A stretch of 64,000 nucleotides of DNA from an uncultured Candidatus Izemoplasmatales bacterium (GTDB lineage Bacteria > Bacillota_I > Bacilli_A > Izemoplasmatales > Izemoplasmataceae): assembly GCA_964395055.1 (NCBI GenBank), contig CAYNAA010000004.1:1830-65829 (forward strand), read 5' to 3'. The notes below the pieces were generated by a model, which had not been told where the DNA came from, ran no database searches, and worked only from the letters and a program-made list of their open reading frames with translations. The position numbers were made by a program, and so were the translations under genes. Of this stretch, positions 5,341 through 26,969 are shown one piece after another; the stretch's first letter is position 1, and each line of letters opens with the position of its first letter.

Positions 5341-6417
5341 TTACTCTGAGAGAATGTCATTCACCATCTCCCAAAAGCGATCTGGGTCCTTGTCCCGAGC
5401 TTCTTCAATACGAATAAGCTCATCTTCTAAATCTGGTAATTCTTCCTGAGCAACCTTGTCACCCAGAGCTGCATCTAATTGTCGTGCCAAGATTTGACTA
5501 CGACAAACATTTCGCGCACTTTTCAGTTTCTTTGGCCCCCATGTTTTTGGGGCTTTTTCTTTTCGTGGCTTGTCTTTGTCTGCTCTCTTCTGTTTCAACC
5601 ACTCTTCAGCTTCTTCTTCATTTTTGATACCATCGACTTCGATGGCTGTTGCAGATGTAAACTTGATTGCATCTTTATCGCCATCGCAGTATTGCTTAAA
5701 TTCTTCTTCAATGAGCGAATGCGCTGAAGCGATCCGCTTAAAATACTGCACTTTTCCACGCCATGTTTCCAAACGGGCTTGTTCAATGGTAGTTACCTTC
5801 TTCGATCCCACCATTGTGAACCCGTGCTTTCTCAATTCATCTAAACGAGCATCCAATGCCAGTTTGGCTCGCGAGCCTCCTAGCTTATAAAACAGGGGAG
5901 AAAGGATATTTGCGATCTCACCTTCAGTTCGATTCTGTCGGACATAGCGTTTCACAGCAAGATAGAGCTCAAACATATCGAGCTCTTCTTCACTGCCATG
6001 ATCCATCATAAGGCGCTGTCGCGTTGGCTCATCAAGATTCAAGACAAGACGATAGGGAACCTGTCCCTCGTAGTGCTTCTTGAAAAACTCTGGCTCGTTA
6101 TCCCGGAGCCACATCAAAGCTCGATGACGTAGAAAACCACAAATACCACGCGGCTTCGCATCATCTTTAGTGGTGTTCATATCCCCCACGATCAAGGGAG
6201 TGCGAATAAAACCATCAGCTTTGAGCTCTGCAATTTTTCGTGTCACTCGCTCATCATATTTGTCAGTGCGGCGAACATTCCACTTTGTAGAATAATCTAC
6301 ATCATCGAGATTGAAATAGTGAAGTTCCTTGTCAGTTTCGATTTCGATTTGTGTGTGCAACTCCGCCATTATTTCAGTGTCAGCATTTAATTCTTCTTGT
6401 ACATGCTCAGTGGTCAT
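5341..6417 (-). CDS. ParB/Srx-superfamily N-terminal domain protein (paralogue C)
   Basis: TPLIVGD...GICGFLRHRALMWL matches the ParB-box GxxRxxA pattern. Lysine/glutamate-rich C-terminus. Confidence 0.5.
   Translation of the reverse strand: MTTEHVQEELNADTEIMAELHTQIEIETDKELHYFNLDDVDYSTKWNVRRTDKYDERVTRKIAELKADGFIRTPLIVGDMNTTKDDAKPRGICGFLRHRALMWLRDNEPEFFKKHYEGQVPYRLVLNLDEPTRQRLMMDHGSEEELDMFELYLAVKRYVRQNRTEGEIANILSPLFYKLGGSRAKLALDARLDELRKHGFTMVGSKKVTTIEQARLETWRGKVQYFKRIASAHSLIEEEFKQYCDGDKDAIKFTSATAIEVDGIKNEEEAEEWLKQKRADKDKPRKEKAPKTWGPKKLKSARNVCRSQILARQLDAALGDKVAQEELPDLEDELIRIEEARDKDPDRFWEMVNDILSE
6288..6299. repeat. palindrome variant TAGAATAATCTA (11/12), inside a CDS
   Basis: One mismatch. 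It is the reverse complement of the variant at 6727-6738. Confidence 0.6.
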
Positions 6418-6440
6418 TTTTCGTTCCTCTTTTTTTTGCG

Positions 6441-6452
6441 TAGAATATTCTA
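6441..6452. repeat. TAGAATATTCTA palindrome, exact copy
   Basis: 12/12. Its TAG (6452-6450) is the stop of ORF 6450-6713. It lies 23 nt before ATG 6417. Confidence 0.9.
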
Positions 6453-6713
6453 CACGAACAGCCTTTCACCAATCACATCGAAAGTTAATGCCCGCGCATT
6501 AACGATATATATAGAACACATCCGCGCGGATGCGAGAATAGCATCGAATTCTTCTTGTGATTCTGGGATCACAGAAGCTCGCCTAAGTGGTTTTTCACTT
6601 AGGATCACTGGCAAATGATTCTTTTTTACCAGCCAATCAAAGGAAGGAGGATCATGAGATCTGATCCCGATACTCTTGATTTCGCATTGTCGCATGTTCA
6701 GTAAGTGTGCCAT
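6450..6713 (-). CDS. hypothetical protein (87 aa), first gene after the tandem promoters
   Basis: ATG 6713 lies 13 nt after palindrome variant 6727-6738, with AAAGGGA as SD. Confidence 0.55.
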   Translation of the reverse strand: MAHLLNMRQCEIKSIGIRSHDPPSFDWLVKKNHLPVILSEKPLRRASVIPESQEEFDAILASARMCSIYIVNARALTFDVIGERLFV

Positions 6714-6726
6714 CGTGTTTCCCTTT

Positions 6727-6738
6727 TAGATTATTCTA
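6727..6738. repeat. palindrome variant TAGATTATTCTA (11/12)
   Basis: Lies between the 14-bp repeat array and the SD of ORF 6450-6713. Confidence 0.7.
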
Positions 6739-6740
6739 CC

Positions 6741-6852
6741 TTTAGCACAAAGTCTTTAGCACAAAGTCTTTAGCACAAAGTCCTCAGCACAAAGTCTTTA
6801 GCATAAAGTCTTTAGCATAAAGTCTTTAGCACAAAGTCTTTAGCATAAAGTC
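6741..6852. repeat. 14-bp direct tandem repeat x8 (TTTAGCACAAAGTC and variants)
   Basis: Eight contiguous units in exact 14-bp register. Variants are C/T at unit position 8, and one unit starts CTC. Lies in the predicted transcribed leader. Confidence 0.9.
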
Positions 6853-6870
6853 TTTCGCCATCATATCTCT

Positions 6871-6900
6871 ATTATATCACAGAAGTAGGTTCAATGTCAA
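6871..6900 (-). promoter_or_regulatory. sigma70-type consensus promoter reading leftward
   Basis: Minus strand reads TTGACA (6900-6895), an 18-nt spacer, then TATAAT (6876-6871) preceded by TGA (extended -10). Confidence 0.7.
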
Positions 6901-6915
6901 GTCTTCCACTATTAT

Positions 6916-6945
6916 ATTATAGTAGTTTTTTTGATCGAAAGTTAA
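6916..6945 (-). promoter_or_regulatory. second promoter, -35 abutting the palindrome
   Basis: Minus strand reads TTAACT (6945-6940), an 18-nt spacer, then TATAAT (6921-6916). Shares the 16-mer AAAAACTACTATAATA with the promoter at 27112-27140. Confidence 0.5.
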
Positions 6946-6957
6946 TAGAATATTCTA
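6946..6957. repeat. TAGAATATTCTA palindrome, exact copy
   Basis: 12/12. Lies 3 nt after the TAA stop of ORF 6961-7845 and directly upstream of the -35 at 6940-6945. Confidence 0.9.
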
Positions 6958-6960
6958 AAA

Positions 6961-7845
6961 TTATGAATTGAGTACCCAATTAACCAAGTTACTATTATTT
7001 CGTAATATGTCTACTTGGCGTTGGGATTCTGCAAAAGAAAGTTCTGTGAAATAATGTTGAGATTGGATTGCTTCCCACATTCTACGCAAACGTGAACGTA
7101 GTTCCATTACTTTATCACTGCGCCCTTTTACCCGATGTGCAGCACAACGTAATTCACCTTTACTGAAAGCTAATTGTTCTACTCCCATAATCCAAGTTTC
7201 TGCTTTTTCTAATCCGATCATCATTGCATACATATATAATTGGTCACGCCATCTTCTATCTAAGTGCCCTCCCATATGAATCGGAATCCCATGATACTTG
7301 AGTGGAATGATGTCTTTATATGCCCCACGATCTCTCCCCTTTACCATCAATCTAATATAGTGTGGGGCTGGATGAGCAGTAGAACAAAAGCCATTAACCT
7401 TCCAATCATATACACAATTGATCCCGTCTTTAAGTATAAAGAATAGATCAGGTTTTCCACCAATAGGAACCCAAAAACCATCCTCAAAAACGATTTTCCC
7501 GTGGGCATCGAATTCATACATGATAGAATTCGCATGTTCTAGTTCTGTGAGCAATTTTCTTAAAGCGCCGGAATTTTTATACTCTTGAAAAACATATCGC
7601 ACATTTTCAAAAGCCCAATCTCTATTATGATGTTCAACTTGGGCCTCGAAAAGAATAGGAAACCATCCTTTTTTGCCAGAAATATGTGCAGCCAAATAGC
7701 TTTTAACATAGGCATCAAAAGCTGATCCAATTGCCATAGGGCGAGTTTGTCGTTGTCGGGGTAAATCCAAAATATATGTAAGAACAAATGACTTACGATC
7801 CTGCTCGAATTTTGAAAGCATTGTCGGACTAATTGCTCTAATCAT
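6961..7845 (-). CDS. PD-(D/E)XK nuclease (Cas4/RecB-like exonuclease fold)
   Basis: GGKPDLFFILKDGINCVYDWKVNG gives the PD...(D/E)xK motif. About 290 aa and adjacent to replication genes. Confidence 0.6.
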   Translation of the reverse strand: MIRAISPTMLSKFEQDRKSFVLTYILDLPRQRQTRPMAIGSAFDAYVKSYLAAHISGKKGWFPILFEAQVEHHNRDWAFENVRYVFQEYKNSGALRKLLTELEHANSIMYEFDAHGKIVFEDGFWVPIGGKPDLFFILKDGINCVYDWKVNGFCSTAHPAPHYIRLMVKGRDRGAYKDIIPLKYHGIPIHMGGHLDRRWRDQLYMYAMMIGLEKAETWIMGVEQLAFSKGELRCAAHRVKGRSDKVMELRSRLRRMWEAIQSQHYFTELSFAESQRQVDILRNNSNLVNWVLNS

Positions 7846-7967: not shown

Positions 7968-7977
7968 TCCTTCTCCT

Positions 7978-9364: not shown

Positions 9365-9365
9365 G

Positions 9366-9791
9366 TCAATAGTCCTTCTTTAGTTTCTTTTGAACCAAAG
9401 CATCGACTCGCAAATTTGCAGGAATTCCAGCATGTCCAGGAATCCAATTCCAGGTGATTTTATGTTTTCGGCTAAGTTGATCTAATTTGATCCACAAATC
9501 CTTATTTTTAATCTTCACTTTATGCCACCCTTTAGCTCGCCATCTAAAAATCCATTTTGTCATCCCTCTTTGTAGGTATTGTGAATCTGTGTAAAGATCA
9601 ACAGAGCAAGAAGTCTTCAGTTTCTTTAATGCCAAAATGGCGGCTTCAAGTTCCATCCTGTTATTAGTTGATCGTTTTCTAACAACAGTAAATTCTTTTT
9701 CAATATCTCGAAAAATTAAAAGGGCCGCCCCAGCCCCTTTCCCTGGATTAGGGCGGCACCCACCATCACAATATACTTGAACATGCTTCAT
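9366..9791 (-). CDS. ribonuclease HI
   Basis: YCDGG, TNNRMELEA, DSQY and PGHAGIPANLRVDAL give the DEDD catalytic pattern. ATG 9791 overlaps the ligase stop (ATGA). The ORF-track start at 9803 is a TTG. Confidence 0.85.
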   Translation of the reverse strand: MKHVQVYCDGGCRPNPGKGAGAALLIFRDIEKEFTVVRKRSTNNRMELEAAILALKKLKTSCSVDLYTDSQYLQRGMTKWIFRWRAKGWHKVKIKNKDLWIKLDQLSRKHKITWNWIPGHAGIPANLRVDALVQKKLKKDY

Positions 9792-10777
9792 GCACTTCTC
9801 CAATAACGGGCTTCTTTAGGTATCCCGCTATTAGTTAATTCTCGATATTTGAAAGTGATCTTTTGACCTCTTTCAAAATGTTTCAAAGGCATTTCATATT
9901 CTTCTTTTCCTTGTTTTGTTATTGCTTCATTTAGTTTAACTTCAGTGCATAACTCACGTTCTTGATTATTTAGACCAGAAACCTTTATATTTTTATCCCG
10001 CCAACGTACAATCAATGATCCAGCTCTGCCTAGATTACGTGAATCTTTGTCGGTTTGTCGTCCCCAAACAAAGCCAATTACTTCGCCTTCATCATCGAAG
10101 AATGGTTTGTATTTCATGATATTCCATGATCGACGTGGTTCCCATTCTCCAAATACTCTACGAAACATAACACCTTCATGGCCTTGCATCAGTATCTCAG
10201 GTAAAGTTTCGTTTTCAAACTTTTTCCAATTGTAGTCAAAAGGTGTTTGCTCAACGGCTTTGAATATCTCATTTTCTGGGGTGAGATGGGTACCTTTATC
10301 TAGTGCCCAAGGTAGATCTTTTTCAATAGCCAATCTTACCATATAATCTTTGATTTTGCGGTCAATCAACATCTGGCATGTTGGCGTCTTGATAATTCTG
10401 GTATTAAAAACTCTGAGCAAACCTGGAGCATCAAAAGCCATGAATCTGATATGCATCCATTCAGAATTGATGGGTTTATATTTTCTACAAGCACTCATTA
10501 CTTGCTGAAAATTTTGAACCCCTGCCCATAATTCACCATCTACGGGGACTTTAGGCAATTGATCCAACCACCAATCAGGGGCGAAAATAGGCTTAGCGTT
10601 AATGCTCCAAAGGCCAGTGGCTTTACGATCCAAACACCAAGGAACATCAGTTCTTCCTCGTGTTATACCACCATCCCAAAAAGCACGCATTCCATCGAAT
10701 TTGATTGACCATGTCCATTTACCATTAAGTCTACGGAGATCTAACTTTTGGGCTTTCATTAAAAAGAAAGTAGACAT
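9788..10777 (-). CDS. ATP-dependent DNA ligase
   Basis: KFDGMR (motif I, adenylated Lys), DGELW (III), EGVMFRR (IV) and KYKP (V). Confidence 0.85.
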   Translation of the reverse strand: MSTFFLMKAQKLDLRRLNGKWTWSIKFDGMRAFWDGGITRGRTDVPWCLDRKATGLWSINAKPIFAPDWWLDQLPKVPVDGELWAGVQNFQQVMSACRKYKPINSEWMHIRFMAFDAPGLLRVFNTRIIKTPTCQMLIDRKIKDYMVRLAIEKDLPWALDKGTHLTPENEIFKAVEQTPFDYNWKKFENETLPEILMQGHEGVMFRRVFGEWEPRRSWNIMKYKPFFDDEGEVIGFVWGRQTDKDSRNLGRAGSLIVRWRDKNIKVSGLNNQERELCTEVKLNEAITKQGKEEYEMPLKHFERGQKITFKYRELTNSGIPKEARYWRSA

Positions 10778-13038: not shown

Positions 13039-13050
13039 TAGAATATTCTA
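13039..13050. repeat. TAGAATATTCTA palindrome, exact copy
   Basis: 12/12. Its TAG (13050-13048) is the stop of ORF 13048-13257. Confidence 0.9.
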
Positions 13051-13259: not shown

Positions 13260-14657
13260 TTAAGTCTCCTGTACATAGTAGAGTTTTTTCATTGCCCGAG
13301 TAATGGCGATGTATTCTAAGTTATCCTCTTGAATCATCTGCCATTCTTTCGTGCATTTCGGATGTGGAAGAAGCTCGGGGTGGAGCAAAAAGACTCGATC
13401 AGTTTCTAAACCTTTACTTCGATGAATAGTGGCGCATACCACACCCTCCAAATTGTTGGAGAACAATTGCTCAATACCTTTTTCAATACCTTCTCGGCCA
13501 AAGGCTTCAAGCAATGCTCTCACAGTATCCACTTTATCACGAATTGCTACCAACCGAGCTTCATCTTTAATTCGCTCAGTCATTTGTTGCTCATACTCAT
13601 CGAGATCATCAACATGCTTTACCAGCTCCAATAAGCCTTCCCCTATTTCTCGACCTTTGACAATGGCTTTGCGTTGGTTACGGATAAGGGAAAGAGCGAA
13701 TTGAACAATAGGAGCAGTTGTACGGCATAAAACATAATCCCCCTCTTGAACAGTTTCTAAAAGATCCTCACGAGAAATACTCGTGACTTGACCTTCTTCA
13801 GCATCTTCAACTGATTCAATTTGAGGGACAATCCTTTTTGCCTCTTCAACAATGGCACGAGCACAACGGTAGCATATGCTCAACGGCAGAACATCTGCCG
13901 AAAAACGTGCAACGATATTATCAATGGCATCATGACTTGCGCCGCGAAAACCATAGATCGCTTGTCTTGTATCCCCTACAGCAATAACTCGTTTTGCAAC
14001 CCGATGAACCAAATCAATCTGTGCAGGGGATAAGTCTTGAGCTTCATCAACAAATACATAGTCATAGGGGGGCATTTTGAGATCATGATATATCGGAAGA
14101 AAAATCATATCATCAAAATCAATGACTTTCTTTTTCTGGATACCTAATTTATGTGTATTGATTGCATGTGAAATAAAACTTTCATCTTGACAATTAATAC
14201 CAAAATGATCGATAAGCCAATCAATTTCTCGAGGGCTTGGTTCAATGATATTATGGGCTTTGAAAAGGGCCACTAATTGAAGAGTAGCTGAACGAATCTT
14301 AAAGAGACGTTGTTTGGCCTCTTTATCATCCTTTGGGTTATCAAAAATATCGAACCAAAGAATATTTTGATTCTTGTTATTATTGACTTTAACCCAACCC
14401 AAGTTTTTTCGGATCATTCTAAATCCAAGAGAATGAAGTGTAGAGACTTCAACATGCTGGGGGGCACGTTGGCTTAGTTCCTCGGCAATATGCTTATTGA
14501 AGGCAATAAAAAGTGTTTTCTTATCTTTTGGTAAGAATTCCAAAGCCTTAACAATTGTGCTAGTTTTTCCTGAACCAGCCACCGCATTTATTACCGCATT
14601 ACCACAACCATTCTGGATGTATTCAAACACGGCTTTTTGATATCTATTTGGGATCAT
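13260..14657 (-). CDS. UvrD/Rep/PcrA-type SF1 DNA helicase
   Basis: AVAGSGKTS (Walker A), VFVDEAQDL (motif II), GDTRQAIYGFRGA (III), TIHRSKGLE (V/VI) and ITRAMKKL. Confidence 0.85.
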   Translation of the reverse strand: MIPNRYQKAVFEYIQNGCGNAVINAVAGSGKTSTIVKALEFLPKDKKTLFIAFNKHIAEELSQRAPQHVEVSTLHSLGFRMIRKNLGWVKVNNNKNQNILWFDIFDNPKDDKEAKQRLFKIRSATLQLVALFKAHNIIEPSPREIDWLIDHFGINCQDESFISHAINTHKLGIQKKKVIDFDDMIFLPIYHDLKMPPYDYVFVDEAQDLSPAQIDLVHRVAKRVIAVGDTRQAIYGFRGASHDAIDNIVARFSADVLPLSICYRCARAIVEEAKRIVPQIESVEDAEEGQVTSISREDLLETVQEGDYVLCRTTAPIVQFALSLIRNQRKAIVKGREIGEGLLELVKHVDDLDEYEQQMTERIKDEARLVAIRDKVDTVRALLEAFGREGIEKGIEQLFSNNLEGVVCATIHRSKGLETDRVFLLHPELLPHPKCTKEWQMIQEDNLEYIAITRAMKKLYYVQET

Positions 14658-15366
14658 TATTTTCTCCTAGTAAGTAGTTTATTCGATGTCGCATACGTTT
14701 TCTTTTGTTGTTAACAGTTACTTTTGTAACTCCAAGTTGTCTGCCAATTTCTTCATCCGTGTAGCCTTCTACTCTTTGAAGAATAATTCGTTTCTCTGTT
14801 TCTGTAAAAAGATCTGAATTCAAGACCTCTTGGTATAACATTGGAAAGGCATCATCTCTTTTTCCAATATATCCTGGATGATATCCCATCTTTTCGCTAT
14901 CGGCTTCATTTCTAGGAGTAAGATTTTCGATATGCTCAAATTCTTGAAACAAATCATTTAGGTCATACTCTTTTAATTTAATAATCAGCCATGCCGAATT
15001 TATTGGGGGTGCTACGACATGATCCTTTTTTATATATGTCTGAAGATAGCCCCAGATACTTTTATGTATATAGGCAGAAAAATTGTTATGTAGAGTCATT
15101 ACCTCGTTGTTAGCAACTTTTCTTGTGCAAATAATTAAATGCAGTAATCCTTGAGCGAATAAATCTTCAGCTTTGAATGGATGAAACACGCTCAACCTAG
15201 CAGCTATGGCGGCAACCAGTCGAATATGACCTTTAATTAATTCATCGATTGCCGCAGCGTCACCTTCCCTTGCTTTTTTTAAGTAATATTGTGTCTCATC
15301 TGCTGTCAGTGCTTTAGGGGGATTTTTAATTCCCCGAAATGACCTTCTCACTTCTTCTCTCCACAA
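14644..15366 (-). CDS. sigma-70 family (ECF-like) sigma factor
   Basis: A region-2-like helix (LIKGHIRLVAAIAARL) and a region-4 HTH (RIILQRVEGYTDEEIGRQLGVTKVTVNNKRKR). No ATG in the first ~90 codons. The track start is TTG. GTG 15351 follows GGAGAGAAGAA. Confidence 0.7.
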   Translation of the reverse strand: MWREEVRRSFRGIKNPPKALTADETQYYLKKAREGDAAAIDELIKGHIRLVAAIAARLSVFHPFKAEDLFAQGLLHLIICTRKVANNEVMTLHNNFSAYIHKSIWGYLQTYIKKDHVVAPPINSAWLIIKLKEYDLNDLFQEFEHIENLTPRNEADSEKMGYHPGYIGKRDDAFPMLYQEVLNSDLFTETEKRIILQRVEGYTDEEIGRQLGVTKVTVNNKRKRMRHRINYLLGENNDPK

Positions 15367-15790: not shown

Positions 15791-16086
15791 GGTAAATCAA
15801 TTTCCTGTTTTATGGCGTCACTTAAACTAGAATAACCTCGTTTCTTTCCTTCTTCAGTTAAGAAAGTTTCTAATTCATCTAATTTTTGTCCGAGCATTTT
15901 TGCGAAAACATATGATCGCAATATCTCAGAATATAGGCTATCCTTAAAATTTGATGGACTATGCTTACCTGATCCATTGCATAAAGGACAAGTTTCAAAT
16001 TCCCATCTATATCGATCATAGCCATATGCCTTTGTTCTCATACGTATTGTGCCTTTACCGTTACAATAATAACATGTACTCATCAT
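15787..16086 (-). CDS. stand-alone DnaJ-type zinc-finger protein (99 aa)
   Basis: CYYCNGKG and CPLCNGSG give two CxxCxGxG motifs. ATGA overlaps with both neighbours. Confidence 0.6.
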   Translation of the reverse strand: MMSTCYYCNGKGTIRMRTKAYGYDRYRWEFETCPLCNGSGKHSPSNFKDSLYSEILRSYVFAKMLGQKLDELETFLTEEGKKRGYSSLSDAIKQEIDLP

Positions 16087-18334: not shown

Positions 18335-18641
18335 AAGTCGCCTTGATTTTGCGGATCAAGTCTTCTCGATTTTCTCCTGCCAACCCTAAAAAAGTACCTA
18401 AATCACGTAATTCATAAAGTGTTAGTGTCTCTAATTTTTGTCGTTTATGCCATTTACGCCATTTCTTCAATACTCCTAAATTCTCAGCCATAATAAGACG
18501 AACAAGTTGTTTCTTAATTCCTGTAGAAGATTCATTATAGAATATTCTAAATTCAGCGGAATTAATTAATCTTTCAATTGCTCTGAGATTATTAATCCGG
18601 TCTTTAACACTTTTAATAATATCATTTATTTGTCCGCCCAT
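18288..18641 (-). CDS. hypothetical protein (117 aa)
   Basis: Same-strand packing. Contains palindrome 18538-18549. Confidence 0.5.
   Translation of the reverse strand: MGGQINDIIKSVKDRINNLRAIERLINSAEFRIFYNESSTGIKKQLVRLIMAENLGVLKKWRKWHKRQKLETLTLYELRDLGTFLGLAGENREDLIRKIKATYGSEVKGVCTKVIKR
18538..18549. repeat. TAGAATATTCTA palindrome, exact copy (in CDS)
   Basis: 12/12. Read as R-I-F-Y. Confidence 0.9.
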
Positions 18642-21007
18642 GAAGCTAGTCTCGTTTTCCAGTCAATCTCAAGTAAAGGCACAACAGAACGATACTCTTT
18701 AATAGTATCATCTACAGCTTGAGTTAATTCAGAGCGTTTTCCTGGCATAACGGGCACCATTACTTCATCATGAATATTTAAGGGGATAACGCACCAATCA
18801 GAATAACCATATGGCTGTAATTTCCAGCAATTACATTGTAATCCTTTTGTTATTTGAGCACCTGTTCCTTGAATTGGCATATTAATAGCAACTCTTGCCA
18901 CTTTATTAGCTATAGAAAATGCTGCCCCATATAAGGCAGATCGCGTGGCACCAATTAAAGTCTGGGAATCTTCTGATCTCACAACTGTACCTATTCTATT
19001 GGCCCATTCTTTAGGTGGATTGGTTGCCAATTCGTACAATGCTTCAATGACTTGGAATTCTAAAGTAAAATAACGAGTAAAGCCCAGCAATGTTGTCACG
19101 GTATCTTTATGTGGGCGCCATTTAATTTCTGTACGTTTACCTCCAGGTTGGTATAACGGACAATAATCTTCCATTGTTTTAGATCGTTTCTTGCCTACTT
19201 CAGGGTAAGCTCGTTCAAAGGAATTAATGCCTGCTCTTGCTTCATTTTGTTCAATACCTAAATTTTTCTTAAAAGCGTGTTCTGTACCCGCAAATAGCCA
19301 GGTAAAAAGTCCACTTTTAGAAATGGTATATAAATCAGGTACTTGTCCGTCTGTTAATCTAATCTGTTTGTAACTATACCCAGGAAAAATGTGAGTTCCA
19401 AAAATTGCATGGATCTTTTTCTTTTCTTTGCCAGTGTTATCACATTTTTGACAACCTACGCCATCACAATATACACAATCAACATAACTCGTTAATTCTT
19501 CTATCAATTCAGGATCATTGTAGACGGCAGCAGCAATGGTGACTTCAAACCCAGAAAAGTCACCGCCATCAAGATCCATATTTTCAAATGCCAACGGAAA
19601 AGCCTTACGAACATATTTCGCTTTCTTAATACCTTGCGCATTTAACCCGCCTGTTCCAGACATGCGACTACTTAAAGTGCCAATTACATTAAGGGCAGCA
19701 TGGAAACGACCTGCAATTAAGAATTTATCATAGACCTGGATTTCTTTTTCTGCATGGCGTGCTTCATATACGAGATGAGCACGATAAGATGCTTGACACT
19801 CCCACTTAATTTCCTTGAGTTTTTCGTGACGCTCTTTTACATCAAGCTTTGCTTTATCAATCTCTTTAATTTGCTCAGCCGCATTTTCATCCCAGTCCAT
19901 GATCTCTTTTAAGGCTTCTTTGTCTGTTGAATCAGGCATACCTAATGCTTCTTCTTCAGACATTACGGCACTTATCCAACGCATAACTGCACGTTGATCT
20001 GTAGGTATTTTACCTTTTATTTTAAGAGCATATTCTCGTAAATCTTTAATTAATTCTATATCAACTTTGAAACCTTTCCATCTAACAGCTCCAACCATAC
20101 ACGCCAATATTGAATCATTATCTCCAATTGGTGGATCATTGAAATGATGATATAAGGCTCTCGTATACACAACATCATTTTCAGCATACTTGCGAGCAGT
20201 TGGATGAAAACCCCAATAATCAATATGATCATCAATAAATTGAGGCCAAGCTCCTTTCCATTTTCCCTTGAAAAGTTTTTTTCTTTGACCTTTCCACTTA
20301 TCTAACTCTTGTAAAGCTAATGCAAAGGGCGCATACCCTAATTCCAAAGGATACTTATAATCAGGTAAAGCGATTTCTTTTAATAAAACGGGATCTTCCT
20401 CAAGATTTAAAGCATCCTTTGCTAATGCTTTAAGTGCTGATGAAGGTGAGAATTTAACATATAAATTCACAAACCCCGATTTTGGGTGCTCCTGAATCTT
20501 CCAAACGGATTTTCGGCGTTTATCTTTCTCAAACAAGATTGCCTTAAAGGGAAGTCTTCTATTTAATTCTTGCTGTAGAGTTTCTGCCATTGATTCAGGG
20601 ATTTTACGAATATAGATATTCTTTCGATCCATAAGATATTGGTATTTAGTTTTTCTGGCATGAAGCATTAAGTCAAAAGCTGAACGTGGTTTAATACATC
20701 CCCTATCTCGTGCATCAGGCTCACAATTTGCATATAACTCAGGATCAATGTATTTACAGGCATTTGGGTAGCGTTCCTGATATTCTAGCAAAGTTGTATA
20801 GGCTTGTGCAATATGGAACCAGTCGAATGCTAGATTAAAACCGATGACACAATTACCCGCAAACCAATCAATTAGATCAAGGGTTTCTTGAACAGGACGA
20901 CGCCAGACCTCATGGATAGATACCTCTCCTTCTTCTTCAGCATACTGTATAATTACAATGGGACCATGTAATCCACAAGTTTCAGTATCTAAGTAAATTT
21001 TTTTCAT
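18626..21007 (-). CDS. family A DNA polymerase with 3'-5' exonuclease domain and inserted zinc knuckle
   Basis: Exo motifs YLDTETCGL, GFNLAFDW and YAENDVVYT. Pol motif A DFSGFEV, motif B region KSGLFTWLFAG, motif C NIHDE. CVYCDGVGCQKCDNTG is inserted just after motif A. Confidence 0.9.
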   Translation of the reverse strand: MKKIYLDTETCGLHGPIVIIQYAEEEGEVSIHEVWRRPVQETLDLIDWFAGNCVIGFNLAFDWFHIAQAYTTLLEYQERYPNACKYIDPELYANCEPDARDRGCIKPRSAFDLMLHARKTKYQYLMDRKNIYIRKIPESMAETLQQELNRRLPFKAILFEKDKRRKSVWKIQEHPKSGFVNLYVKFSPSSALKALAKDALNLEEDPVLLKEIALPDYKYPLELGYAPFALALQELDKWKGQRKKLFKGKWKGAWPQFIDDHIDYWGFHPTARKYAENDVVYTRALYHHFNDPPIGDNDSILACMVGAVRWKGFKVDIELIKDLREYALKIKGKIPTDQRAVMRWISAVMSEEEALGMPDSTDKEALKEIMDWDENAAEQIKEIDKAKLDVKERHEKLKEIKWECQASYRAHLVYEARHAEKEIQVYDKFLIAGRFHAALNVIGTLSSRMSGTGGLNAQGIKKAKYVRKAFPLAFENMDLDGGDFSGFEVTIAAAVYNDPELIEELTSYVDCVYCDGVGCQKCDNTGKEKKKIHAIFGTHIFPGYSYKQIRLTDGQVPDLYTISKSGLFTWLFAGTEHAFKKNLGIEQNEARAGINSFERAYPEVGKKRSKTMEDYCPLYQPGGKRTEIKWRPHKDTVTTLLGFTRYFTLEFQVIEALYELATNPPKEWANRIGTVVRSEDSQTLIGATRSALYGAAFSIANKVARVAINMPIQGTGAQITKGLQCNCWKLQPYGYSDWCVIPLNIHDEVMVPVMPGKRSELTQAVDDTIKEYRSVVPLLEIDWKTRLASWADK

Positions 21008-21010: not shown

Positions 21011-21883
21011 TTATCTACCTGGAATACTAAGTTCTCCCGCTTTGGGAATACCTTCTTTTCTAACTTCATATACTTTACCGATCTCTGAAAAATGTGTCTG
21101 TAAGTCAGTCATTAAATCTAAATCAGAGATGTTGCCAGCTGCCCAAGCAAGCATCCTAGTGTGTATACCACTATACCCTCCAGACTCAAAATAATGATCG
21201 ATAAGATTTTGGATTTCTTCGGCTGAACGTGCGCGTGAGATTTTTGCTCGACTTTTTCGTGTGGCAACACTATCAGGAACCTTTATTTTTATGGGTCCAC
21301 TATACCCTTTTAACCGTTTATCTTTAATAGCTCTAGCAAATGCAAAACGATCACGTCTATTCTTCATGGAATAAAGTTTTCGTATTTGCTCATTTGTAAG
21401 CATTTCATCTTCAGCCATTTGCTGAATTTCTGGTTCAAGCTCTAAAAGATAAAGTCTAGGTTGAACCCAACCCGTGCTTCTTCCAATTCTTTTTTCAATT
21501 TCTCCACGATCCAATCCCATTCTAACGAATTTTGAAAGGGCATTTGCCTCTTGCATAATTGTCAAATCATGACGATCAATATTTTCTTGGAGATTTACAA
21601 TTGCAGCATCGGTTTTACTCAACTCCTTTTCACTTAAAGTAAAAGGCATTTCCTTCCACTCAAGAATTTTCATACAGGCATAACACCTGGTATAACCAGC
21701 AACGAGATCATATTTTTCCTTGATCCCCTCATGTGGTTTTACCTTGCGAATCAACGGTAATTGGTGTAAGCCTTCTTGTTTGATGCTCTTTGCTAAATTG
21801 AGAGCATGTTCATGCCTGATTCGTCCACGATTATTCGCGTCCCAATCTATGTGGACTTCATCCCATTTAAGTTTTAACTCCAT
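21011..21883 (-). CDS. ParB-like protein with HTH (paralogue B)
   Basis: LPLIRKV...YDLVAGYTRCYA gives the GxxRxxA box, followed by an HTH-like IGRSTGWVQPRLYLLEL. Confidence 0.6.
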   Translation of the reverse strand: MELKLKWDEVHIDWDANNRGRIRHEHALNLAKSIKQEGLHQLPLIRKVKPHEGIKEKYDLVAGYTRCYACMKILEWKEMPFTLSEKELSKTDAAIVNLQENIDRHDLTIMQEANALSKFVRMGLDRGEIEKRIGRSTGWVQPRLYLLELEPEIQQMAEDEMLTNEQIRKLYSMKNRRDRFAFARAIKDKRLKGYSGPIKIKVPDSVATRKSRAKISRARSAEEIQNLIDHYFESGGYSGIHTRMLAWAAGNISDLDLMTDLQTHFSEIGKVYEVRKEGIPKAGELSIPGR

Positions 21884-22256: not shown

Positions 22257-22841
22257 TTAAAGCTCAACGAGTTTTTTGTACGCAGCGGCCGTCATTAGAC
22301 AATCACCACGAGCCGTATGAGCATCTTTAATCTCAATGCCTAAACCTTGACAAATCTTTCCAAGACTAATTCCCCCAAAGGGCAGGGTCATTTCATTGCG
22401 TTGTGCGCGGTCACAAAGATATAATGCAATACGCGCGACATCGCGAACCTGATAATGAAAAAAGGTGGAAATACAATTCGGCTGTTTGTTATCCCGATCA
22501 AGCCATGCCATAAGCATGGGTTTATCAAATGACCAATTTTGGGCAATTACATCCATGGTTTTACGGCCCGATGGAATAACATAATCCTTGTGCCATTTAA
22601 TAAAAGCTGCAATTGTCTCGGCCCGTGTTGGGGCTTGTTCTAATTCCTCTTTGGTTTTTCCATTAACCTTCAGAGCACGGGGATCCAAACGATCTGGAAA
22701 ATCAGGTTTTACATCTGTTTCAAAAGCCGGAATTTTCTCATTCACACTGAAATCTGGATTTAGAGGCAAAAGGCAAATGCCGATGGCCTCGTGGTAATAA
22801 GGCTGAAGACCTCCTGTTTCAACATCAGCGGCGACAATCAT
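22257..22841 (-). CDS. DnaQ-like DEDDh 3'-5' exonuclease
   Basis: MIVAADVETGGL (Exo I), NWSFDKPML (Exo II) and HTARGDCLMTA (Exo III, H-x4-D). GGAGG sits 9 nt before ATG 22841. Confidence 0.75.
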   Translation of the reverse strand: MIVAADVETGGLQPYYHEAIGICLLPLNPDFSVNEKIPAFETDVKPDFPDRLDPRALKVNGKTKEELEQAPTRAETIAAFIKWHKDYVIPSGRKTMDVIAQNWSFDKPMLMAWLDRDNKQPNCISTFFHYQVRDVARIALYLCDRAQRNEMTLPFGGISLGKICQGLGIEIKDAHTARGDCLMTAAAYKKLVEL

Positions 22842-24786
22842 GATCTGTTTCCTCCATAAACTTTTGTAATTCACCAAGAGACACACTTTGAAGTTCTCGT
22901 TTTTTCTTTAAGTTCTCACGCACATACTCATCTGTTTCCAAATGAATAATGTCAACAATAATAGCTCCTTTATTTTTATCCATCCCGATACGATGGATAC
23001 GTGCTTCAGATTGGATACGATCATCACCCGAGAAGGTATTGGAATAGTATACCAACATATATGATGCCGTTAGAGTTAGAGAAGTTTTTGCTGTAGCTGG
23101 ATGTGCAACGAAAGCAAGTTTCGGGATTTTTCTTTCTTTATCCTGAAAAGCTGTCAATGGATGAGTATTCAAGGGCACACTTGTTGACATCCCATATTTT
23201 GCAGATTTACACTCTTTAGTTCCATCAGCTCGAATAGTTTCCCATCCTGCTTTTTTACATATATCTATCACTCGATCAATCGATGCTGTAAAACCTGCAA
23301 AAACAACGATTCTTCCATTTTCTTCACACTCTTCCAATAATTCTCTAAGCGCTTCATCTTTAGGTGTGGGTACTCGTTTTGTTGTTCTTATCATCTTTGT
23401 GTGAACACCCGCACCATCACAATTTGGGCAAGTCACTTCATATTGTTCTCCTTCTCCTTCTTTGAATTCTATGGATTTACCTCTACCAAAACAACGATCA
23501 CACTGTGTAGTTTCATCACTAGGTTCTTCTTTATATTGAAAACCATCGCTCAATTCTCTTAAACGAGTAAGAGCTTGAATTGTTGTTGGTGAAGTTTTTG
23601 TTATCATTTTCGCGGCGCGTTTAATTGTAGGTTTTATTGGGCATTTCACAATGCGATAAATTATGTCTGGTAAATCAATACAATCCTTCTTGAATTGGAC
23701 TAAAACAAGCCCCCTTAAACGACGGTATAGCTTGTCAATTTCGTTTACGGATGGCTTGAAATGATGAAAGTCATCCGTAAGGCATGTCGATACTTTGGGA
23801 GCTAAGCCCGCTAAGCCTTCCTGAATTTCCTTTTTCTTATCTTCTAGTGACTTATTTCCCATGTGATTAGGGTGATCCTTATACTCACCACAAACCGCAC
23901 ATTTATTTTCATCATCCCACCATGTTATCAATTTCGGATACATACCACCTGCAAGTGATTGTTCCTTCTTAATTAAGGCAAGACAATTTTCCATTTTAAT
24001 GATGTTGCCTTCTTTAAGAAAACCTGGGCAAGCTATTTCCGCTTGCATCCACCAATCCTTAGGTGACTTAGGAGCGGGAGCACCAGAAGCCAAAATGATA
24101 TAAGGCTTCTCATGATCTTTTCTCATCCCATCAGTAAGATGTTTGGCACACTGTGACCGTTGACTTGCCGGTGTTTTCAAGTATTGGGCTTCATCGAAGA
24201 TAACCAAATCCGGTGCAGTACGACCTTCAGGCCAATCCATTACGAGTGATCGCATTTCCGAGTACGACAAAAAGATCGGCCAAACTTTTGCTTCCCATTC
24301 CGAAAACAACAATTTGATTTGTGTCAACGAAAAACGTGGGGCAACATACCATGCTAATTTTGGGCGCACATGCTCTAACACTTCAATGAATGCCAAGGTT
24401 TTACCTGTTCCCATTTCGGCTGCAACAATACATTCACGTCGAGTTAGCATATGTTGTATCATAACAACCTGATGGTCATATAATACACTACGATTAGGCT
24501 TTATGTCAAGAAGTTCCCTATCATAGCGATAATAGGGATCAGGAGCATCGGCATCAAGATATTGTAATGCCCACAAATTACGTGGAGTGCGGTTTACTTC
24601 CCAATGGGGAATTGGATCCCGTGAAAATTTTGCACCCTCCATCGCCCGTATTTCTTCTTTTAAGTTGTTCCATTCATCTGAATGATGCCAATTAAAATAA
24701 AGATAAATCTTTTTTGCATTTTCTTCTATTTGAATACGGAATTTAAGTTTGCCTGATTTAAAGTATTTTACTTGGTCTGCCACCAT
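22825..24786 (-). CDS. SNF2/DEAD-like SF2 helicase with inserted double zinc knuckle
   Basis: LYDHQ, AAEMGTGKT, VIFDEAQYLK and QSEARIHRIGM. CDRCFGRG...CPNCDGAG lies between the two RecA-like lobes. Confidence 0.85.
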   Translation of the reverse strand: MVADQVKYFKSGKLKFRIQIEENAKKIYLYFNWHHSDEWNNLKEEIRAMEGAKFSRDPIPHWEVNRTPRNLWALQYLDADAPDPYYRYDRELLDIKPNRSVLYDHQVVMIQHMLTRRECIVAAEMGTGKTLAFIEVLEHVRPKLAWYVAPRFSLTQIKLLFSEWEAKVWPIFLSYSEMRSLVMDWPEGRTAPDLVIFDEAQYLKTPASQRSQCAKHLTDGMRKDHEKPYIILASGAPAPKSPKDWWMQAEIACPGFLKEGNIIKMENCLALIKKEQSLAGGMYPKLITWWDDENKCAVCGEYKDHPNHMGNKSLEDKKKEIQEGLAGLAPKVSTCLTDDFHHFKPSVNEIDKLYRRLRGLVLVQFKKDCIDLPDIIYRIVKCPIKPTIKRAAKMITKTSPTTIQALTRLRELSDGFQYKEEPSDETTQCDRCFGRGKSIEFKEGEGEQYEVTCPNCDGAGVHTKMIRTTKRVPTPKDEALRELLEECEENGRIVVFAGFTASIDRVIDICKKAGWETIRADGTKECKSAKYGMSTSVPLNTHPLTAFQDKERKIPKLAFVAHPATAKTSLTLTASYMLVYYSNTFSGDDRIQSEARIHRIGMDKNKGAIIVDIIHLETDEYVRENLKKKRELQSVSLGELQKFMEETDHDCRR

Positions 24787-25208
24787 CGTAATACTCCTGT
24801 AGCTCTAAGTTGGTCTTCAACCTTCTTTAGCAAGATTTCTCCGCTTTTTTCCTTATTAGAATATTCTATGAGGGTTATCCAATCATAAATGGTTCCTGAT
24901 AGTATAGCTAAGGAAAAACCATACTTATCTGTATCCAAAATTGCAATATCAATCCCTGCAAATAAATCTTGCACCTCTTTTAGCATACTAAAAGGAAAAG
25001 TGCCCAAAAACAATAAGGGCGTCAATTTCGCTGCTTTTTTCTTTCCCAAATAATGTTTGAGAGTTATCGGTAAAGCTAGGAAATGATCTAAGTCAACCCC
25101 AAAATTCGCAGCTTCTTCTAAGACCCGTTCTTCCCTATTCCAATTAATGATATTTTCATAAGTAGCGGTTGCCATTGCAAAGGGTGTAATTTTTATGTCG
25201 AAAGTCAT
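24768..25208 (-). CDS. hypothetical protein (146 aa)
   Basis: Same-strand packing. Contains palindrome 24857-24868 (IEYSN), 70 nt before the SNF2 start. Confidence 0.5.
   Translation of the reverse strand: MTFDIKITPFAMATATYENIINWNREERVLEEAANFGVDLDHFLALPITLKHYLGKKKAAKLTPLLFLGTFPFSMLKEVQDLFAGIDIAILDTDKYGFSLAILSGTIYDWITLIEYSNKEKSGEILLKKVEDQLRATGVLRWWQTK
24857..24868. repeat. TAGAATATTCTA palindrome, exact copy (in CDS)
   Basis: 12/12. Confidence 0.9.
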
Positions 25209-25229
25209 TTGGCAACCTTTTTTTATTTT

Positions 25230-25266
25230 GTGGCGGACAGGCTAGGGAAGTTAGCCTGCCCGCCAC
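25230..25266. other. 15-bp intergenic stem-loop (1 mismatch)
   Basis: GTGGCGGACAGGCTA, a 7-nt loop, then TAGCCTGCCCGCCAC. An A-rich tract rather than a U-tract follows on the transcribed strand. Confidence 0.7.
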
Positions 25267-25289
25267 GCACGGGGGACAGAGAGAGAAGC

Positions 25290-26003
25290 TTAACGTTCCC
25301 GGGTTTCGGCAGTCGAATCAACCTCGACCGGTTCTTCATCATCCCAAGGTGCAGAGACTTCCTCGGTATTTTGGAAATTCTTGATCTGTTCTGTCATTTC
25401 CGCAATATCCGGGGGAACGGCAAACGGGGTTGTACAGGGCTTGACATTGAGTCCCCACCAACTATATTCATCATTGTCAATGGGATCAGATTTCAATGTT
25501 GCAGCCTTGCGCAAATAAGCAATCAACGTTGTCTTTGCAACACGACGAAGAGTAGGATTGTTGCAAAAGAAAGTCATGAACTTACCTGTTTCACCGTGGT
25601 AAAACAGAAATTCATAACCCCAGAAATAACCGCGTGTTTTGTCATTGGCACGCTTCTGAAACTCTTGAAACTTCTCCGACGTGTGGTCATACACAACATC
25701 GATCTTGCCAGTCTGGCGGTTCGAGAACATTGCTCGCGGTCGGAAGTCACAGATGAACACATCAATGGCTTCACCAAGATCATGAACGTCAGACTTTCCA
25801 TATTTCAAGGCAAGATGTCCCTGAGTAATGGAATGAGGCGGCTTGGCCAAAACTGAAGATGACTGGACTAAAGTGAGATAAGGTAGCCAATTAGCTTCAT
25901 CACCTAATTCTTCTACAATGCTAGTTGAATTGGCGGCAGGTAAAAGACTTGCCAGATCATCTTGAACTACTGGGACATTTGTTTCATCAACCATGGTAAT
26001 CAA
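25290..26003 (-). CDS. hypothetical protein, possibly an ssDNA-binding/annealing protein
   Basis: About 237 aa with an acidic C-terminal tail (PWDDEEPVEVD), positioned among replication genes. Guess from architecture only. Confidence 0.3.
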   Translation of the reverse strand: MITMVDETNVPVVQDDLASLLPAANSTSIVEELGDEANWLPYLTLVQSSSVLAKPPHSITQGHLALKYGKSDVHDLGEAIDVFICDFRPRAMFSNRQTGKIDVVYDHTSEKFQEFQKRANDKTRGYFWGYEFLFYHGETGKFMTFFCNNPTLRRVAKTTLIAYLRKAATLKSDPIDNDEYSWWGLNVKPCTTPFAVPPDIAEMTEQIKNFQNTEEVSAPWDDEEPVEVDSTAETRER

Positions 26004-26018
26004 TTCTCCAATTGTGGT

Positions 26019-26969
26019 TTATTGAGCATTTTCGACAAGGGCTTCAGATTCTTCAGCTTTCTTGGCTTCTTCTCGTTGACGACGCTCTTCAGCACGCTTT
26101 CTCTTTGCCTCTTGTTCCTGTTCCCACTTTTCACGCTCAATCTGCTCTGTTTTGGGATCAACCCGAAGAACCCAATCGATAGCGAGATCAAAAGCTTCAA
26201 CAGGCGTCATGTTGTCAGTGACAAGATCCGCGCGTGCCTTATGAGTTTCCTGTTCATCCAGAATATCCGTCTTAGAACGCACACGAGGAAGAAGTTTGAA
26301 TGTCTCAGCCCCGGCTTTCTTTCCGGCTCGCTGAGCAGTCTTGATCTGTTCAAGGCGTGCCTTTGCGGCTTCCACGAAAACTTCAGGAGACTGTTCACTT
26401 GCCCGCTTAACCCATTGAAGCTGTTCGTCTGCCGGAAGCTTCGCAAGCTGTTGAGCATTGGTAAGTGGAATATCACCATTGTCAACGCTTTCCTGAATTT
26501 CCGGTACCAACTTGGATAGATTCATACGGGCCGTGATCCAAGCGGGGGAAACATTCATTTCCTCGGCAAGCTGACTGATAGTTACATCATCATTCAGCGC
26601 CAAATAGTGCATGATCGCGCGACCATATTCCGCAGGCTTAGTCTTAATGTTATGCAGATTCGCTTGAATCTGAAGACTAAGTGTTTTGGATTCATCAGCA
26701 TCCAAAATTTGTGCCGGAATTGTATCATAATTCAACAATTCACAAATAGCCACACGCTGAAGGCCATCAATGAGGATGTAAATCTCTTCGCCGGTTTCCT
26801 CATCAATGGTCTCTCGAACGGTGATCGACTGTAAAACGCCTTCCTTTTCAATGGAACGCTTCAGAAATTCAAATTCCTCTGATTCAGTTTTGGCTTCTCG
26901 TAATGCCCTTTCACCTGCTTTGATTTTGCTTACTTGTACTTCTTCGATTCGTCCACGATTTGCTTCCAT
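26019..26969 (-). CDS. ParB-like protein with HTH (paralogue A)
   Basis: LQSITVRE...YILIDGLQRVAICELL gives the ParB box. HTH TISQLAEEMNVSPAWITARMNLSKL. K/E-rich C-terminus. Confidence 0.7.
   Translation of the reverse strand: MEANRGRIEEVQVSKIKAGERALREAKTESEEFEFLKRSIEKEGVLQSITVRETIDEETGEEIYILIDGLQRVAICELLNYDTIPAQILDADESKTLSLQIQANLHNIKTKPAEYGRAIMHYLALNDDVTISQLAEEMNVSPAWITARMNLSKLVPEIQESVDNGDIPLTNAQQLAKLPADEQLQWVKRASEQSPEVFVEAAKARLEQIKTAQRAGKKAGAETFKLLPRVRSKTDILDEQETHKARADLVTDNMTPVEAFDLAIDWVLRVDPKTEQIEREKWEQEQEAKRKRAEERRQREEAKKAEESEALVENAQ

Follow-up and report, generated by a model that had tools for sequence, protein, structure and literature searches.

The 64,000-nucleotide stretch of DNA analysed here in its entirety (the window), from contig CAYNAA010000004.1 of an uncultured Candidatus Izemoplasmatales bacterium, encodes three proteins of the ParB/Srx fold, called here ParB-A, ParB-B and ParB-C, and no ParA or ParM. 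Judged by its gene content, the window covers the greater part of the genome, about 72.7 kb, of a siphovirus-like phage that looks virulent. ParB-A and ParB-B belong to the fixed core of a replisome operon in a large uncultured phage clade. All three proteins are most likely, if tentatively so, site-specific ParB-type DNA binders that work on the phage's own genome without ParA, in regulation of the kind seen with KorB, VirB and Noc. An earlier reading of the sequence (the original prediction) had proposed them as three ParB/Srx-family paralogues forming a KorB-like set of global regulators. The open reading frames (ORFs) that it had picked out are all present on the minus strand, at 26019-26969 (ParB-A), 21011-21883 (ParB-B) and 5341-6417 (ParB-C), and contain the peptides that it had quoted. 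The GxxRxxA segment that it had seen in all three is found in ParB-B and ParB-C, but the DGLQRVA of ParB-A is GxxRxA, one residue shorter. The bare G..R..A pattern is not diagnostic, being present in 7 of the 80 open frames of at least 100 amino acids (aa) in the window. The assignment of all three to the ParB/Srx fold is upheld, by Pfam for ParB-A and ParB-B and, for ParB-C, by a structure model resembling KorB and Spo0J together with a profile alignment to the ParB-B family.

ParB-A (316 aa) is made up of a ParB_N domain, an HTH_ParB domain and a charged C-terminal tail rich in Lys, Glu and Arg. Its Pfam matches are to ParB_N (6.9e-9, 36.1 bits, gathering cut-off 26.3) and HTH_ParB (PF17762; 2.3e-7, 31.3 bits, cut-off 22.6), it exceeds the cut-off of TIGR00180 (60.1 bits against 58.45), and its best sequence match in the PDB is Noc (7ol9, 5e-9). 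ParB-B (290 aa), encoded immediately upstream of the DNA polymerase gene polA, matches HTH_ParB (8e-11, 42.4 bits, cut-off 22.6) and ParB_N (PF02195; 1e-6, 29.1 bits, cut-off 26.3), with Spo0J (1vz0, 5e-13) as the best match in the PDB. The helix-turn-helix (HTH) that had been noticed in these two proteins is therefore of the ParB type, above the cut-offs in both. Their N-domains and HTHs align to Noc, Spo0J, ParB and, less strongly, KorB, and the framework of the recognition helix, S..W...R, is conserved in both families. The ParB-A family has the signature ALR ... IDGL(H/Q)R ... Q..AN.H..ETKP. The C-terminal thirds have no Pfam match and carry conserved motifs of their own, W..D and the charged tail in ParB-A and LAWAAGxI in ParB-B. 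These sequence features identify ParB-A and ParB-B as true ParB_N and HTH_ParB proteins. The two are homologous (27% identity over 143 aa, E 9e-9), and the term "paralogue set" holds to that extent, but they represent two families that are separate and diverged long ago, not accidental paralogues, and ParB-C is a relative only at the level of fold and profile.

Indeed, ParB-C (358 aa) has no sequence match in Pfam, PHROGs, NCBIfam, PADLOC or the PDB, including no Pfam match to an HTH, and no similarity to ParB-A or ParB-B by BLASTP. A profile search of the PDB with its family gave chance matches only, and hhalign found no match between the ParB-C and ParB-A families. The evidence for its fold comes from 13 homologues, in which the motifs N.R, GF.R..A and DHGSEE are invariant. 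An AlphaFold2 model built from 14 homologues (pLDDT, the model's own confidence score, 84.8) has as its top Foldseek matches in the PDB KorB (8qa9, E 1e-4), Spo0J, Caulobacter ParB, PadC and sulfiredoxin, and in BFVD phage proteins resembling ParB and Spo0J. The alignments to KorB and Spo0J span 220-262 columns, that is, the N-domain together with the DNA-binding domain. Aligned by hhalign, the ParB-C and ParB-B families match with a probability of 78% (E 1.7e-5); boxes I-III line up, NVRR pairing with NCRG, GFLRHRA with GYTRCYA and DHGSEEELD with ENLxRKDLN, so that box II of ParB-C lies where it had been guessed to lie. On the model and this alignment, ParB-C is a divergent ParB/Srx-fold protein of a family that is not captured by current sequence models.

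That ParA and ParM are absent from the 64 kb, as had been claimed, is borne out by a six-frame search for the Walker motif and by Pfam and PHROGs scans. The deviant Walker A motif KGGxGK[ST] does not occur in any of the six frames of the window, there is no Pfam match to a partition ATPase (ParA, CbiA, AAA_31) in the 43 larger ORFs, with the ORFs of 3,419 and 1,996 aa compared with PHROGs only, and no ParA is listed in the gene tables of related loci. The ParA-activating motif (L/F/I)G(K/R)G(L/F/I), as defined in PMC12704722, is absent from all three ParB proteins. Sites resembling the 16-bp Bacillus-type parS, TGTTNCACGTGAAACA with up to 3 mismatches, number 3 in the window against 1.6 expected, and Noc-binding sites (NBS) are at chance level. 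ParB-A, ParB-B and ParB-C are not a partition system. The Noc equivalog TIGR04285 gives 61 bits for ParB-A and 82 for ParB-B against a cut-off of 315. The Pfam KorB domain (PF08535) gives 14.8 bits (E 0.029) for ParB-B against a cut-off of 22.3 and no match for ParB-A and ParB-C, and no KorA-like partner was recognised among the scanned ORFs. GmrSD_N (PF03235) matches ParB-A with E 0.084 and 13.4 bits, the cut-off being 33.2, and PADLOC gives no matches. The activators of 5mYOX enzymes, as defined in PMC13229309, differ in that ParB-A and ParB-B carry an HTH and have as neighbours an OB-fold protein, a helicase, an exonuclease and a polymerase.

Searching IMG/VR with the ParB-B family alignment gave 62 loci on contigs of 47-130 kb, in which genes were counted by local hidden Markov model and phmmer searches of six-frame ORFs. 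A ParB-A family gene lies 4-8 kb upstream of the ParB-B gene on the same strand in 57 of these loci. A gene for a 237-aa protein, p237, is present in 56, always adjoining that of ParB-A, an SNF2 helicase gene in 60, polA just downstream of the ParB-B gene in 55, and a primase-helicase gene divergent from that of ParB-A in 51. The order primase-helicase, then divergently ParB-A, p237, SNF2, ParB-B and PolA, is kept in about 57 of the 62 contigs and is also found in the gene tables of the metagenomic relatives L004 and L006. In the window the corresponding genes are those of the primase-helicase (DUF5906; 27626-30331, plus strand), ParB-A, p237 (25290-26003, minus strand), an SNF2/DEAD-type helicase (22825-24786, minus strand), ParB-B and a family A DNA polymerase (PolA; 18626-21007, minus strand), with an RNase T-type exonuclease at 22257-22886. 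ParB-A is thus encoded by the first gene of the leftward replication operon. This conservation of gene order identifies ParB-A and ParB-B as products of core genes of the operon.

The p237 family is unannotated and has 779 representative homologues (E <= 1e-3); the protein has an acidic C-terminal tail ending in R.R. There was nothing in a profile search of the PDB or in PHROGs, and its model (pLDDT 87) has weak Foldseek matches to the oligonucleotide/oligosaccharide-binding (OB) domain of BRCA2, RPA, PRD1 P12 and SsbA (E 0.07-0.3). These weak structural matches point to an OB-fold protein, probably a single-stranded DNA-binding protein (SSB) of an unrecognised phage family.

The divergent intergenic region between the genes of ParB-A and the primase-helicase (26970-27625) contains mirrored TATAAT promoters, with the leftward -10 at 27113-27118 and the rightward -10 at 27303-27308. 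The inferred -35 of the leftward promoter has a 13-bp palindrome variant, TAGAATGATTCTA (27143-27155), one base upstream of it, so that ParB-A is indeed first in a leftward operon behind a palindrome-associated promoter, as the original prediction had it. An alternating CG run of about 12 bp (27160-27172, where CGCGCGCG is 25 standard deviations above expectation) is found beside an A-rich stretch of repeats (27190-27265), and the sequence of the region makes it a possible origin of replication or unwinding element. In relatives the same region gathers locus-specific repeats. The non-palindromic sequence AATCAAATC, present in 30 of 63 related loci (L004, L015, L022, L030, L047 and others) and absent from the window, often occurs there as inverted pairs and recurs near the sigma gene.

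The 12-bp palindrome TAGAATATTCTA occurs 16 times in the window without a mismatch and 5 times with one, where 0.5 occurrences would be expected if one mismatch is tolerated, and is a genuine, highly non-random cis element. Exact copies in the early and replication regions start at 712, 872, 1036, 2101, 5095, 5258, 6441, 6946, 8174, 11343, 13039, 15598, 16244, 18538 and 24857, and the sixteenth is in the structural half at 47930. About ten of the 16 are at gene boundaries, before a Shine-Dalgarno sequence (SD) and start codon, before the gene for tRNA-Leu or touching a -35 box; 6 copies are inside ORFs. The copies at 872, 2101, 6441 (before the ParB-C gene) and 8174, with variants at 6727 and 7978, are 10-24 nt before an SD and ATG on the coding strand. 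Those at 712 and 5095 precede very short ORFs, and that at 13039 precedes a hairpin, an SD and an ATG. The claim that the palindrome is dispersed with some copies beside -35 boxes holds for 6946-6957, which abuts the -35 (TTAACT) of a sigma-70-like promoter, and for the variant at 27143-27155. The tRNA-Leu(UAA) gene (5170-5256, minus strand) starts 1 nt after the exact copy at 5258-5269; if this dyad were a transcription start or processing site, the 5' end of the tRNA would coincide with it.

The gene of ParB-C lies behind the promoters at 6871-6945, as had been predicted, in an operon with a control region at 6727-6957 (minus strand). Read along the coding strand, an exact palindrome (6946-6957) heads the region and is followed by the promoters TTAACT-18-TATAAT (6945-6916, minus strand) and TTGACA-18-TGnTATAAT (6900-6871, minus strand), the latter a 12/12 match to the sigma-70 consensus with TG. 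Then come an array of 8.3 units of the 14-bp AAAGACTTTRTGCT (6740-6855), the palindrome variant TAGAATAATCTA (6727-6738), an 87-aa ORF (6450-6713), a further exact palindrome (6441-6452) 23 nt upstream of the ATG, and ParB-C itself, the second gene of the operon. Tandem direct repeats are found immediately upstream of ParB-C family genes in three phages (8 x 14 bp in the window, 25 x 21 bp in L074 at 1-535 and 2.6 x 18 bp in L010 at 9745-9791), and these arrays look like centromeres or iterons. A second 12/12 consensus sigma-70 promoter in the window (943-914, minus strand) is bracketed by two AAGACCGGTCTT palindromes (925-936 and 948-959), which have the half-site AAGAC in common with the 14-bp array unit. 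On the coding strand, both the palindrome at 1036 and this promoter are closely preceded by a direct repeat of 2.8 units of the 27-bp TTTATAATCCGCCCGGATCAGTCCTAA (1057-1131). ParB-C is encoded about 15 kb from ParB-B in the window and is much rarer than ParB-A and ParB-B, being found only there and in nine other contigs, always in the early region and in synteny with genes for a PD-(D/E)XK nuclease, UvrD and a sigma factor.

Three of the relatives that encode ParB-C, those closest to the window, have at high density a perfect dyad of their own, a diverged version of its palindrome: CAGAATSATTCTG in L077 (CAGAAT(G/C)ATTCTG; 16 copies in 4.75 kb), CAGAAWWTTCTG in L010 (23 copies in 16 kb) and GTAGCAATTGCTAC in L073 (10 copies in 9.9 kb). 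The geometry is like that in the window, usually with a terminator-like hairpin, the dyad, and an SD and ATG, or with the dyad beside the -35 of a consensus promoter. At position 1218 of L077 the dyad forms the middle of a longer hairpin. Such perfect dyads, drifting in sequence between relatives, point to a phage-encoded dimeric reader whose specificity drifts with them. A plain sigma-70 -10 box (TAGAAT) had been considered for the palindrome, since the gene for tRNA-Leu begins 1 nt after one copy and many copies are at once followed by an SD and ATG. As a general explanation this was rejected, as there is no conserved -35 and the TAGCAA, GATTCC and AGTTA of the relatives are not -10-like; the L073 half-site TAGCAA cannot be a sigma-70 -10, which removes this simplest alternative. 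The window, L077, L010 and L073 share one ParB-C subgroup (helix region ILSPLFYxL), and dyads of this kind are absent from four contigs with the other subgroup (ARLYYRL and similar). In more distant members of the clade, other locus-specific dyads tend to gather just upstream of the ParB-A gene (TGATTCCGGAATCA, AGTTAnTAACT, GATTAnTAATC and CTCTAnTAGAG), with 6 copies in 230 bp in L021 and the same tendency in L055 and L057. The recognition helix of ParB-B, SRGWVQ[VI]R, is near-constant among loci with different dyads, which makes ParB-B a poor candidate for the reader. A link between one of the ParB proteins and the palindrome is plausible from these sequence patterns, if on balance doubtful, with ParB-C or ParB-A as the candidates and ParB-B unlikely.

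In the reading that is preferred here, ParB dimers would recognise short, phage-specific DNA sites through their HTH, and a nucleotide bound in the N-domain may gate the occupation of these sites or spreading from them. Occupation of the sites would then time early and middle transcription, organise the replicating phage DNA, or both. As the site, the dispersed 12-bp palindrome is the obvious candidate, and as its readers ParB-C or ParB-A are the best candidates; ParB-C would be made early, from its consensus sigma-70 promoter.

There are several points that weigh against this reading. An intact nucleotide pocket, which the original prediction had named as the thing to look for, is not seen. 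Box II, canonically GERR within GERRxRA, is GLQR (GLQRVA) in ParB-A, GYTR (GYTRCYA) in ParB-B and GFLR (GFLRHRA) in ParB-C, so that the GERR pair is absent from all three. All three retain the one Arg by which the superfamily is defined, but have lost the Glu and the first Arg. Box III, canonically ENxxR (ENLQR), is intact in ParB-B (ENIDR, within ENIDRHDL), but ParB-A has ANLHN and ParB-C has DHGSE. These are family traits, since all of the ParB-A family has IDGL(H/Q)R, most of the ParB-B family has GHRR and the boxes of ParB-C are invariant. In KorB, R117 and N146 are required for CTP-dependent clamp closure and long-range silencing (PMC11790492), and homologues of the ParB fold may bind CTP, ATP or GTP, neither sequence nor AlphaFold3 predicting which (PMC12704722). 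With a degenerate pocket and an unpredictable ligand, CTPase activity can be neither asserted nor excluded for the three proteins. The Pfam search of the C-terminal thirds of ParB-A and ParB-B detected no dimerisation domain. As for the palindrome, its binding by any of these proteins is inferred from sequence. The relatives that carry palindromes of this family were all found through ParB-C, so that their co-occurrence with it is in part a product of the search, and it is further confounded by common descent. Many clade members with ParB-A and ParB-B have no dispersed palindrome in the 20 kb sampled, which argues that the conserved job of these two proteins needs none. The recognition helix of ParB-A is more variable than that of ParB-B and shows no clean covariation with the dyads or with AATCAAATC across about 60 loci. 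Other possible readers, no less available than the ParB proteins, are the sigma factor and dozens of small ORFs that lack annotation, and the order of hairpin, palindrome and SD would also fit a phage promoter or an RNA signal, read for example by the sigma factor.

A more elaborate version, which is improbable as it stands, would have the ParB-C or ParB-A family co-diversify with the 12-14-bp dyad to form a ParA-less gate that acts on transcription gene by gene, as a clamp or roadblock, with ParB-B coupling the gate to the replisome, much as the sliding clamp of T4 couples replication to late transcription. Early and middle genes would then be punctuated by a terminator-like hairpin, the dyad and a ribosome-binding site, in this order, and the gate would be a variation on KorB or on the stoperators of mycobacteriophages. 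Of more weight, although still rather unlikely, is the possibility that ParB-A and ParB-B are factors for replication or DNA organisation, not regulators of transcription, that load near an origin in the region between the primase and ParB-A genes, the palindrome being read by another factor. They might serve as a platform or clamp for the assembly or positioning of the replisome, compact or compartmentalise the DNA, or recruit the host SMC. Their place in the replisome operon beside an SSB-like protein, SNF2 and PolA, kept in about 57 contigs, is what such a role would predict, as are the concentration of locus-specific repeats and AATCAAATC in that intergenic region, the near-constant helix of ParB-B, expected for a conserved structural or replication site, and the many clade members without dispersed palindromes in the 20 kb sampled. 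The origin is only putative, however, the window has no AATCAAATC, ParB-C is left unexplained, and to our knowledge no known phage replisome requires a ParB. Regulation through dispersed sites is retained as the preferred reading.

DNA modification would offer another use for ParB proteins, as nucleotide-dependent accessory or targeting subunits of modifying enzymes, comparable to DpdB with DpdA, DndB and the fusions of ParB to methyltransferases. ParB-like activators of phage 5mYOX thymine dioxygenases exist (PMC13229309) and ParB-methyltransferase fusions are common in phages (PMC12704722). The window encodes a D12 methyltransferase, GATC words are over-represented in it and in its relatives, one of which has two methyltransferases and 44 copies of TAGAATC in 21 kb, and the DGLQR of ParB-A resembles DGQHR/DUF262 motifs (the weak GmrSD_N match, E 0.084). 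The ParB proteins associated with 5mYOX lack a DNA-binding domain (PMC13229309), whereas ParB-A and ParB-B have a full HTH; no Tet/JBP, DpdA or Dnd protein was found among the scanned ORFs, and a methyltransferase is present in 21 of 62 loci while ParB-A and ParB-B are present in nearly all, so that this role is judged unlikely. Partition of an episome by one of the proteins, most plausibly ParB-C with the array as its centromere, together with the ParA (Soj) of the host or a ParA encoded outside the window, is less likely again. The arrays upstream of ParB-C genes in three phages do resemble plasmid centromeres, SopB of the plasmid-prophage N15 has four separate sites, each an inverted repeat (PMC7205306), and 8.7 kb of the genome lies outside the window. 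Against this, the 64 kb yielded no integrase, repressor or ParA, the replisome is of the virulent type, the ParA-activating N-terminal motif is absent, ParB-C is driven by consensus early promoters, and a scan of 185,579 species-representative genomes with ParB-A found nothing. It is very unlikely that the three are enzymes of the ParB-nuclease type, for host DNA degradation or anti-defence, with no sequence-specific regulation. The ParB/Srx N-domain is found in proteins annotated as nucleases, some PHROG matches are to "ParB-like partition nuclease" and the nucleotide-binding motifs are degenerate, but the complete HTH of ParB-A and ParB-B aligns over its full length to Noc and Spo0J, their families keep the S..W...R framework, they are not fused to an HNH or any other catalytic domain of a nuclease, and there are no PADLOC matches.

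The identification of the window as most of a phage genome comes from identical proteins recorded on a contig of 72,688 bp, which leaves about 8.7 kb outside it. In 1-27 kb and 32-64 kb almost every gene is on the minus strand. The presence of a replisome and a sigma factor, with no integrase, repressor, ParA or ParM found among the scanned ORFs of the window, suggests a phage of the virulent type. There is no megablast match of 10 kb among the INPHARED phages or PLSDB plasmids, and against phages tblastn found no match to PolA at 1e-5 and, for ParB-A, only distant ParB-like genes with at most 31% identity. The type of sigma factor, the strong AAGGAG ribosome sites and the best matches to Noc and Spo0J suggest a Firmicute host.

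Family searches also identified a PD-(D/E)XK nuclease (6961-7845), an ATP-dependent ligase (9788-10777), a UvrD helicase (13260-14657) and a phage sigma factor of SigF/SigG or extracytoplasmic function (ECF) type (14644-15366, minus strand). This sigma factor is nearest to the sporulation sigmas SigF, SigG and SigK and to ECF sigmas, and has homologues in many related contigs, including the related loci discussed above. A Dam-like D12 adenine methyltransferase is encoded at 30888-31730, with homologues in 21 of the 62 related loci. In the structural half there are a P22-type coat protein (61809-63191), a scaffold-like protein (63193-63765; a weak match, below the Pfam cut-off) and, at 41785-58031, a tape-measure protein of 1,996 aa followed by an overlapping ORF of 3,419 aa. 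This last ORF has almost no family matches and, as a tail or host-recognition protein, would be exceptionally large for a phage genome of 73 kb. The idea that it is a virion RNA polymerase of the N4 type was dropped, as the neighbouring 1,996-aa ORF is a tape-measure protein, which makes the phage siphovirus-like.

Words containing GATC are over-represented in the window (TGATCC 103 times against 46 expected, TGATCG 68 against 28) and in relatives, among them L002 and L006. In L004, which has two D12 methyltransferases, there are 44 copies of TAGAATC in 21 kb where about 5 would be expected; they are found on either strand and within genes. Two relatives that encode ParB-C have a PurZ-like homologue of adenylosuccinate synthetase (L002, 15604-16896; L075, 5024-6247), a hint of possible 2-aminoadenine (Z) genomes in part of the group; no PurZ-like gene was seen in the window. 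A tandem repeat of 18/36 bp (16691-16830; 5.8 x 18 bp, 96% matches) encodes a repeated peptide within the ORF at 16083-17000, which is weakly similar to deoxynucleoside monophosphate kinases.

Orphan proteins of the ParB fold on phages and mobile elements are already known (PMC12704722), and KorB is a model global regulator (PMC11790492). ParB-fold nucleotide switches do more than segregate DNA, as in KorB, VirB and Noc, and almost nothing is known of the phage orphans. The phage described here provides a concrete and widespread case, in which two ParB proteins are encoded in a replisome operon and one sub-lineage adds the ParB-C family and a diversifying palindrome. What appears to be new is the conservation of a dual-ParB replisome operon across a large uncultured phage clade, the ParB-C family, with a ParB fold that is invisible to sequence models, and the possible pairing of a ParB with a fast-evolving, genome-wide dyad in a phage of the virulent type. 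No description of two or three ParB genes fixed in a phage replisome operon was found in the literature searched, which is a weak negative. If one of the ParB proteins reads the palindrome, this would be the first case in a virulent phage of a global circuit like that of KorB, and a natural system in which to follow the evolution of ParB-type DNA specificity. If none does, there are still two conserved features that call for an explanation, the replisome module with its two ParB genes and the punctuation by palindromes.

Among known systems, the ParB activators of 5mYOX enzymes (PMC13229309), with DpdB and DndB, are phage proteins of the ParB fold that act without ParA and with enzymes of DNA metabolism. 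The 5mYOX activators have no DNA-binding domain and adjoin a 5mYOX gene, while the HTH of ParB-A and ParB-B is complete and no 5mYOX enzyme turned up among the scanned ORFs. The placement of the palindrome has a different parallel. The stoperators of cluster A mycobacteriophages, read by L5 gp71, and the start-associated sequences of cluster K are 13-bp sites that occur in tens of copies in the gaps upstream of early gene starts. Like the palindrome of the window, they occupy small gaps between genes, shortly before gene starts in early operons; unlike it, they are asymmetric and are read by the immunity repressor of a temperate phage and not by a ParB, the site in the window being a perfect dyad in a phage that looks virulent.

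The SopB sites of phage N15 are dispersed and affect the expression of phage genes. SopB of N15 and ParB of P1 are phage-encoded proteins of the ParB family that read scattered palindromes through an HTH (PMC7205306), but these are plasmid-prophages with a cognate SopA or ParA and have 4 sites, against at least 16 here, in a phage that shows no sign of a plasmid state. The orphan ParB proteins of mobile elements (PMC12704722), Noc and VirB share with the present proteins the lack of a parAB operon and of a ParA-binding motif, and a mobile element as their setting. Noc and Spo0J are the best sequence matches of ParB-A and ParB-B, but Noc needs an N-terminal membrane-targeting helix and NBS sites, and the window has no NBS above chance.

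The comparison with KorB of RK2 (8qa8, 8qa9; PMC11790492), which the original prediction had drawn, holds on the DNA side and less well on the side of its partners. KorB has IncC as its ParA partner and KorA as co-repressor, and neither is present or identified in the window, the KorB domain of Pfam being below threshold as well. It needs R117 and N146, where the proteins described here have one Arg in box II and ParB-C has His for the Asn of box III. KorB belongs to a plasmid replicon and these proteins to a virulent-type phage, in which most palindromes are just upstream of ribosome-binding sites and not near mapped promoters. In common with KorB there are, however, the combination of a ParB N-domain with an HTH, KorB being the best structural match of ParB-C and a weaker sequence match of ParB-A and ParB-B, and a short perfect palindrome at many dispersed sites, some of which abut a -35 (here at 6946 and 27143). 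Perfect dyads of 12-14 bp also match in size the KorB operator OB (PMC11790492), the NBS of Noc and sites of the parS type.

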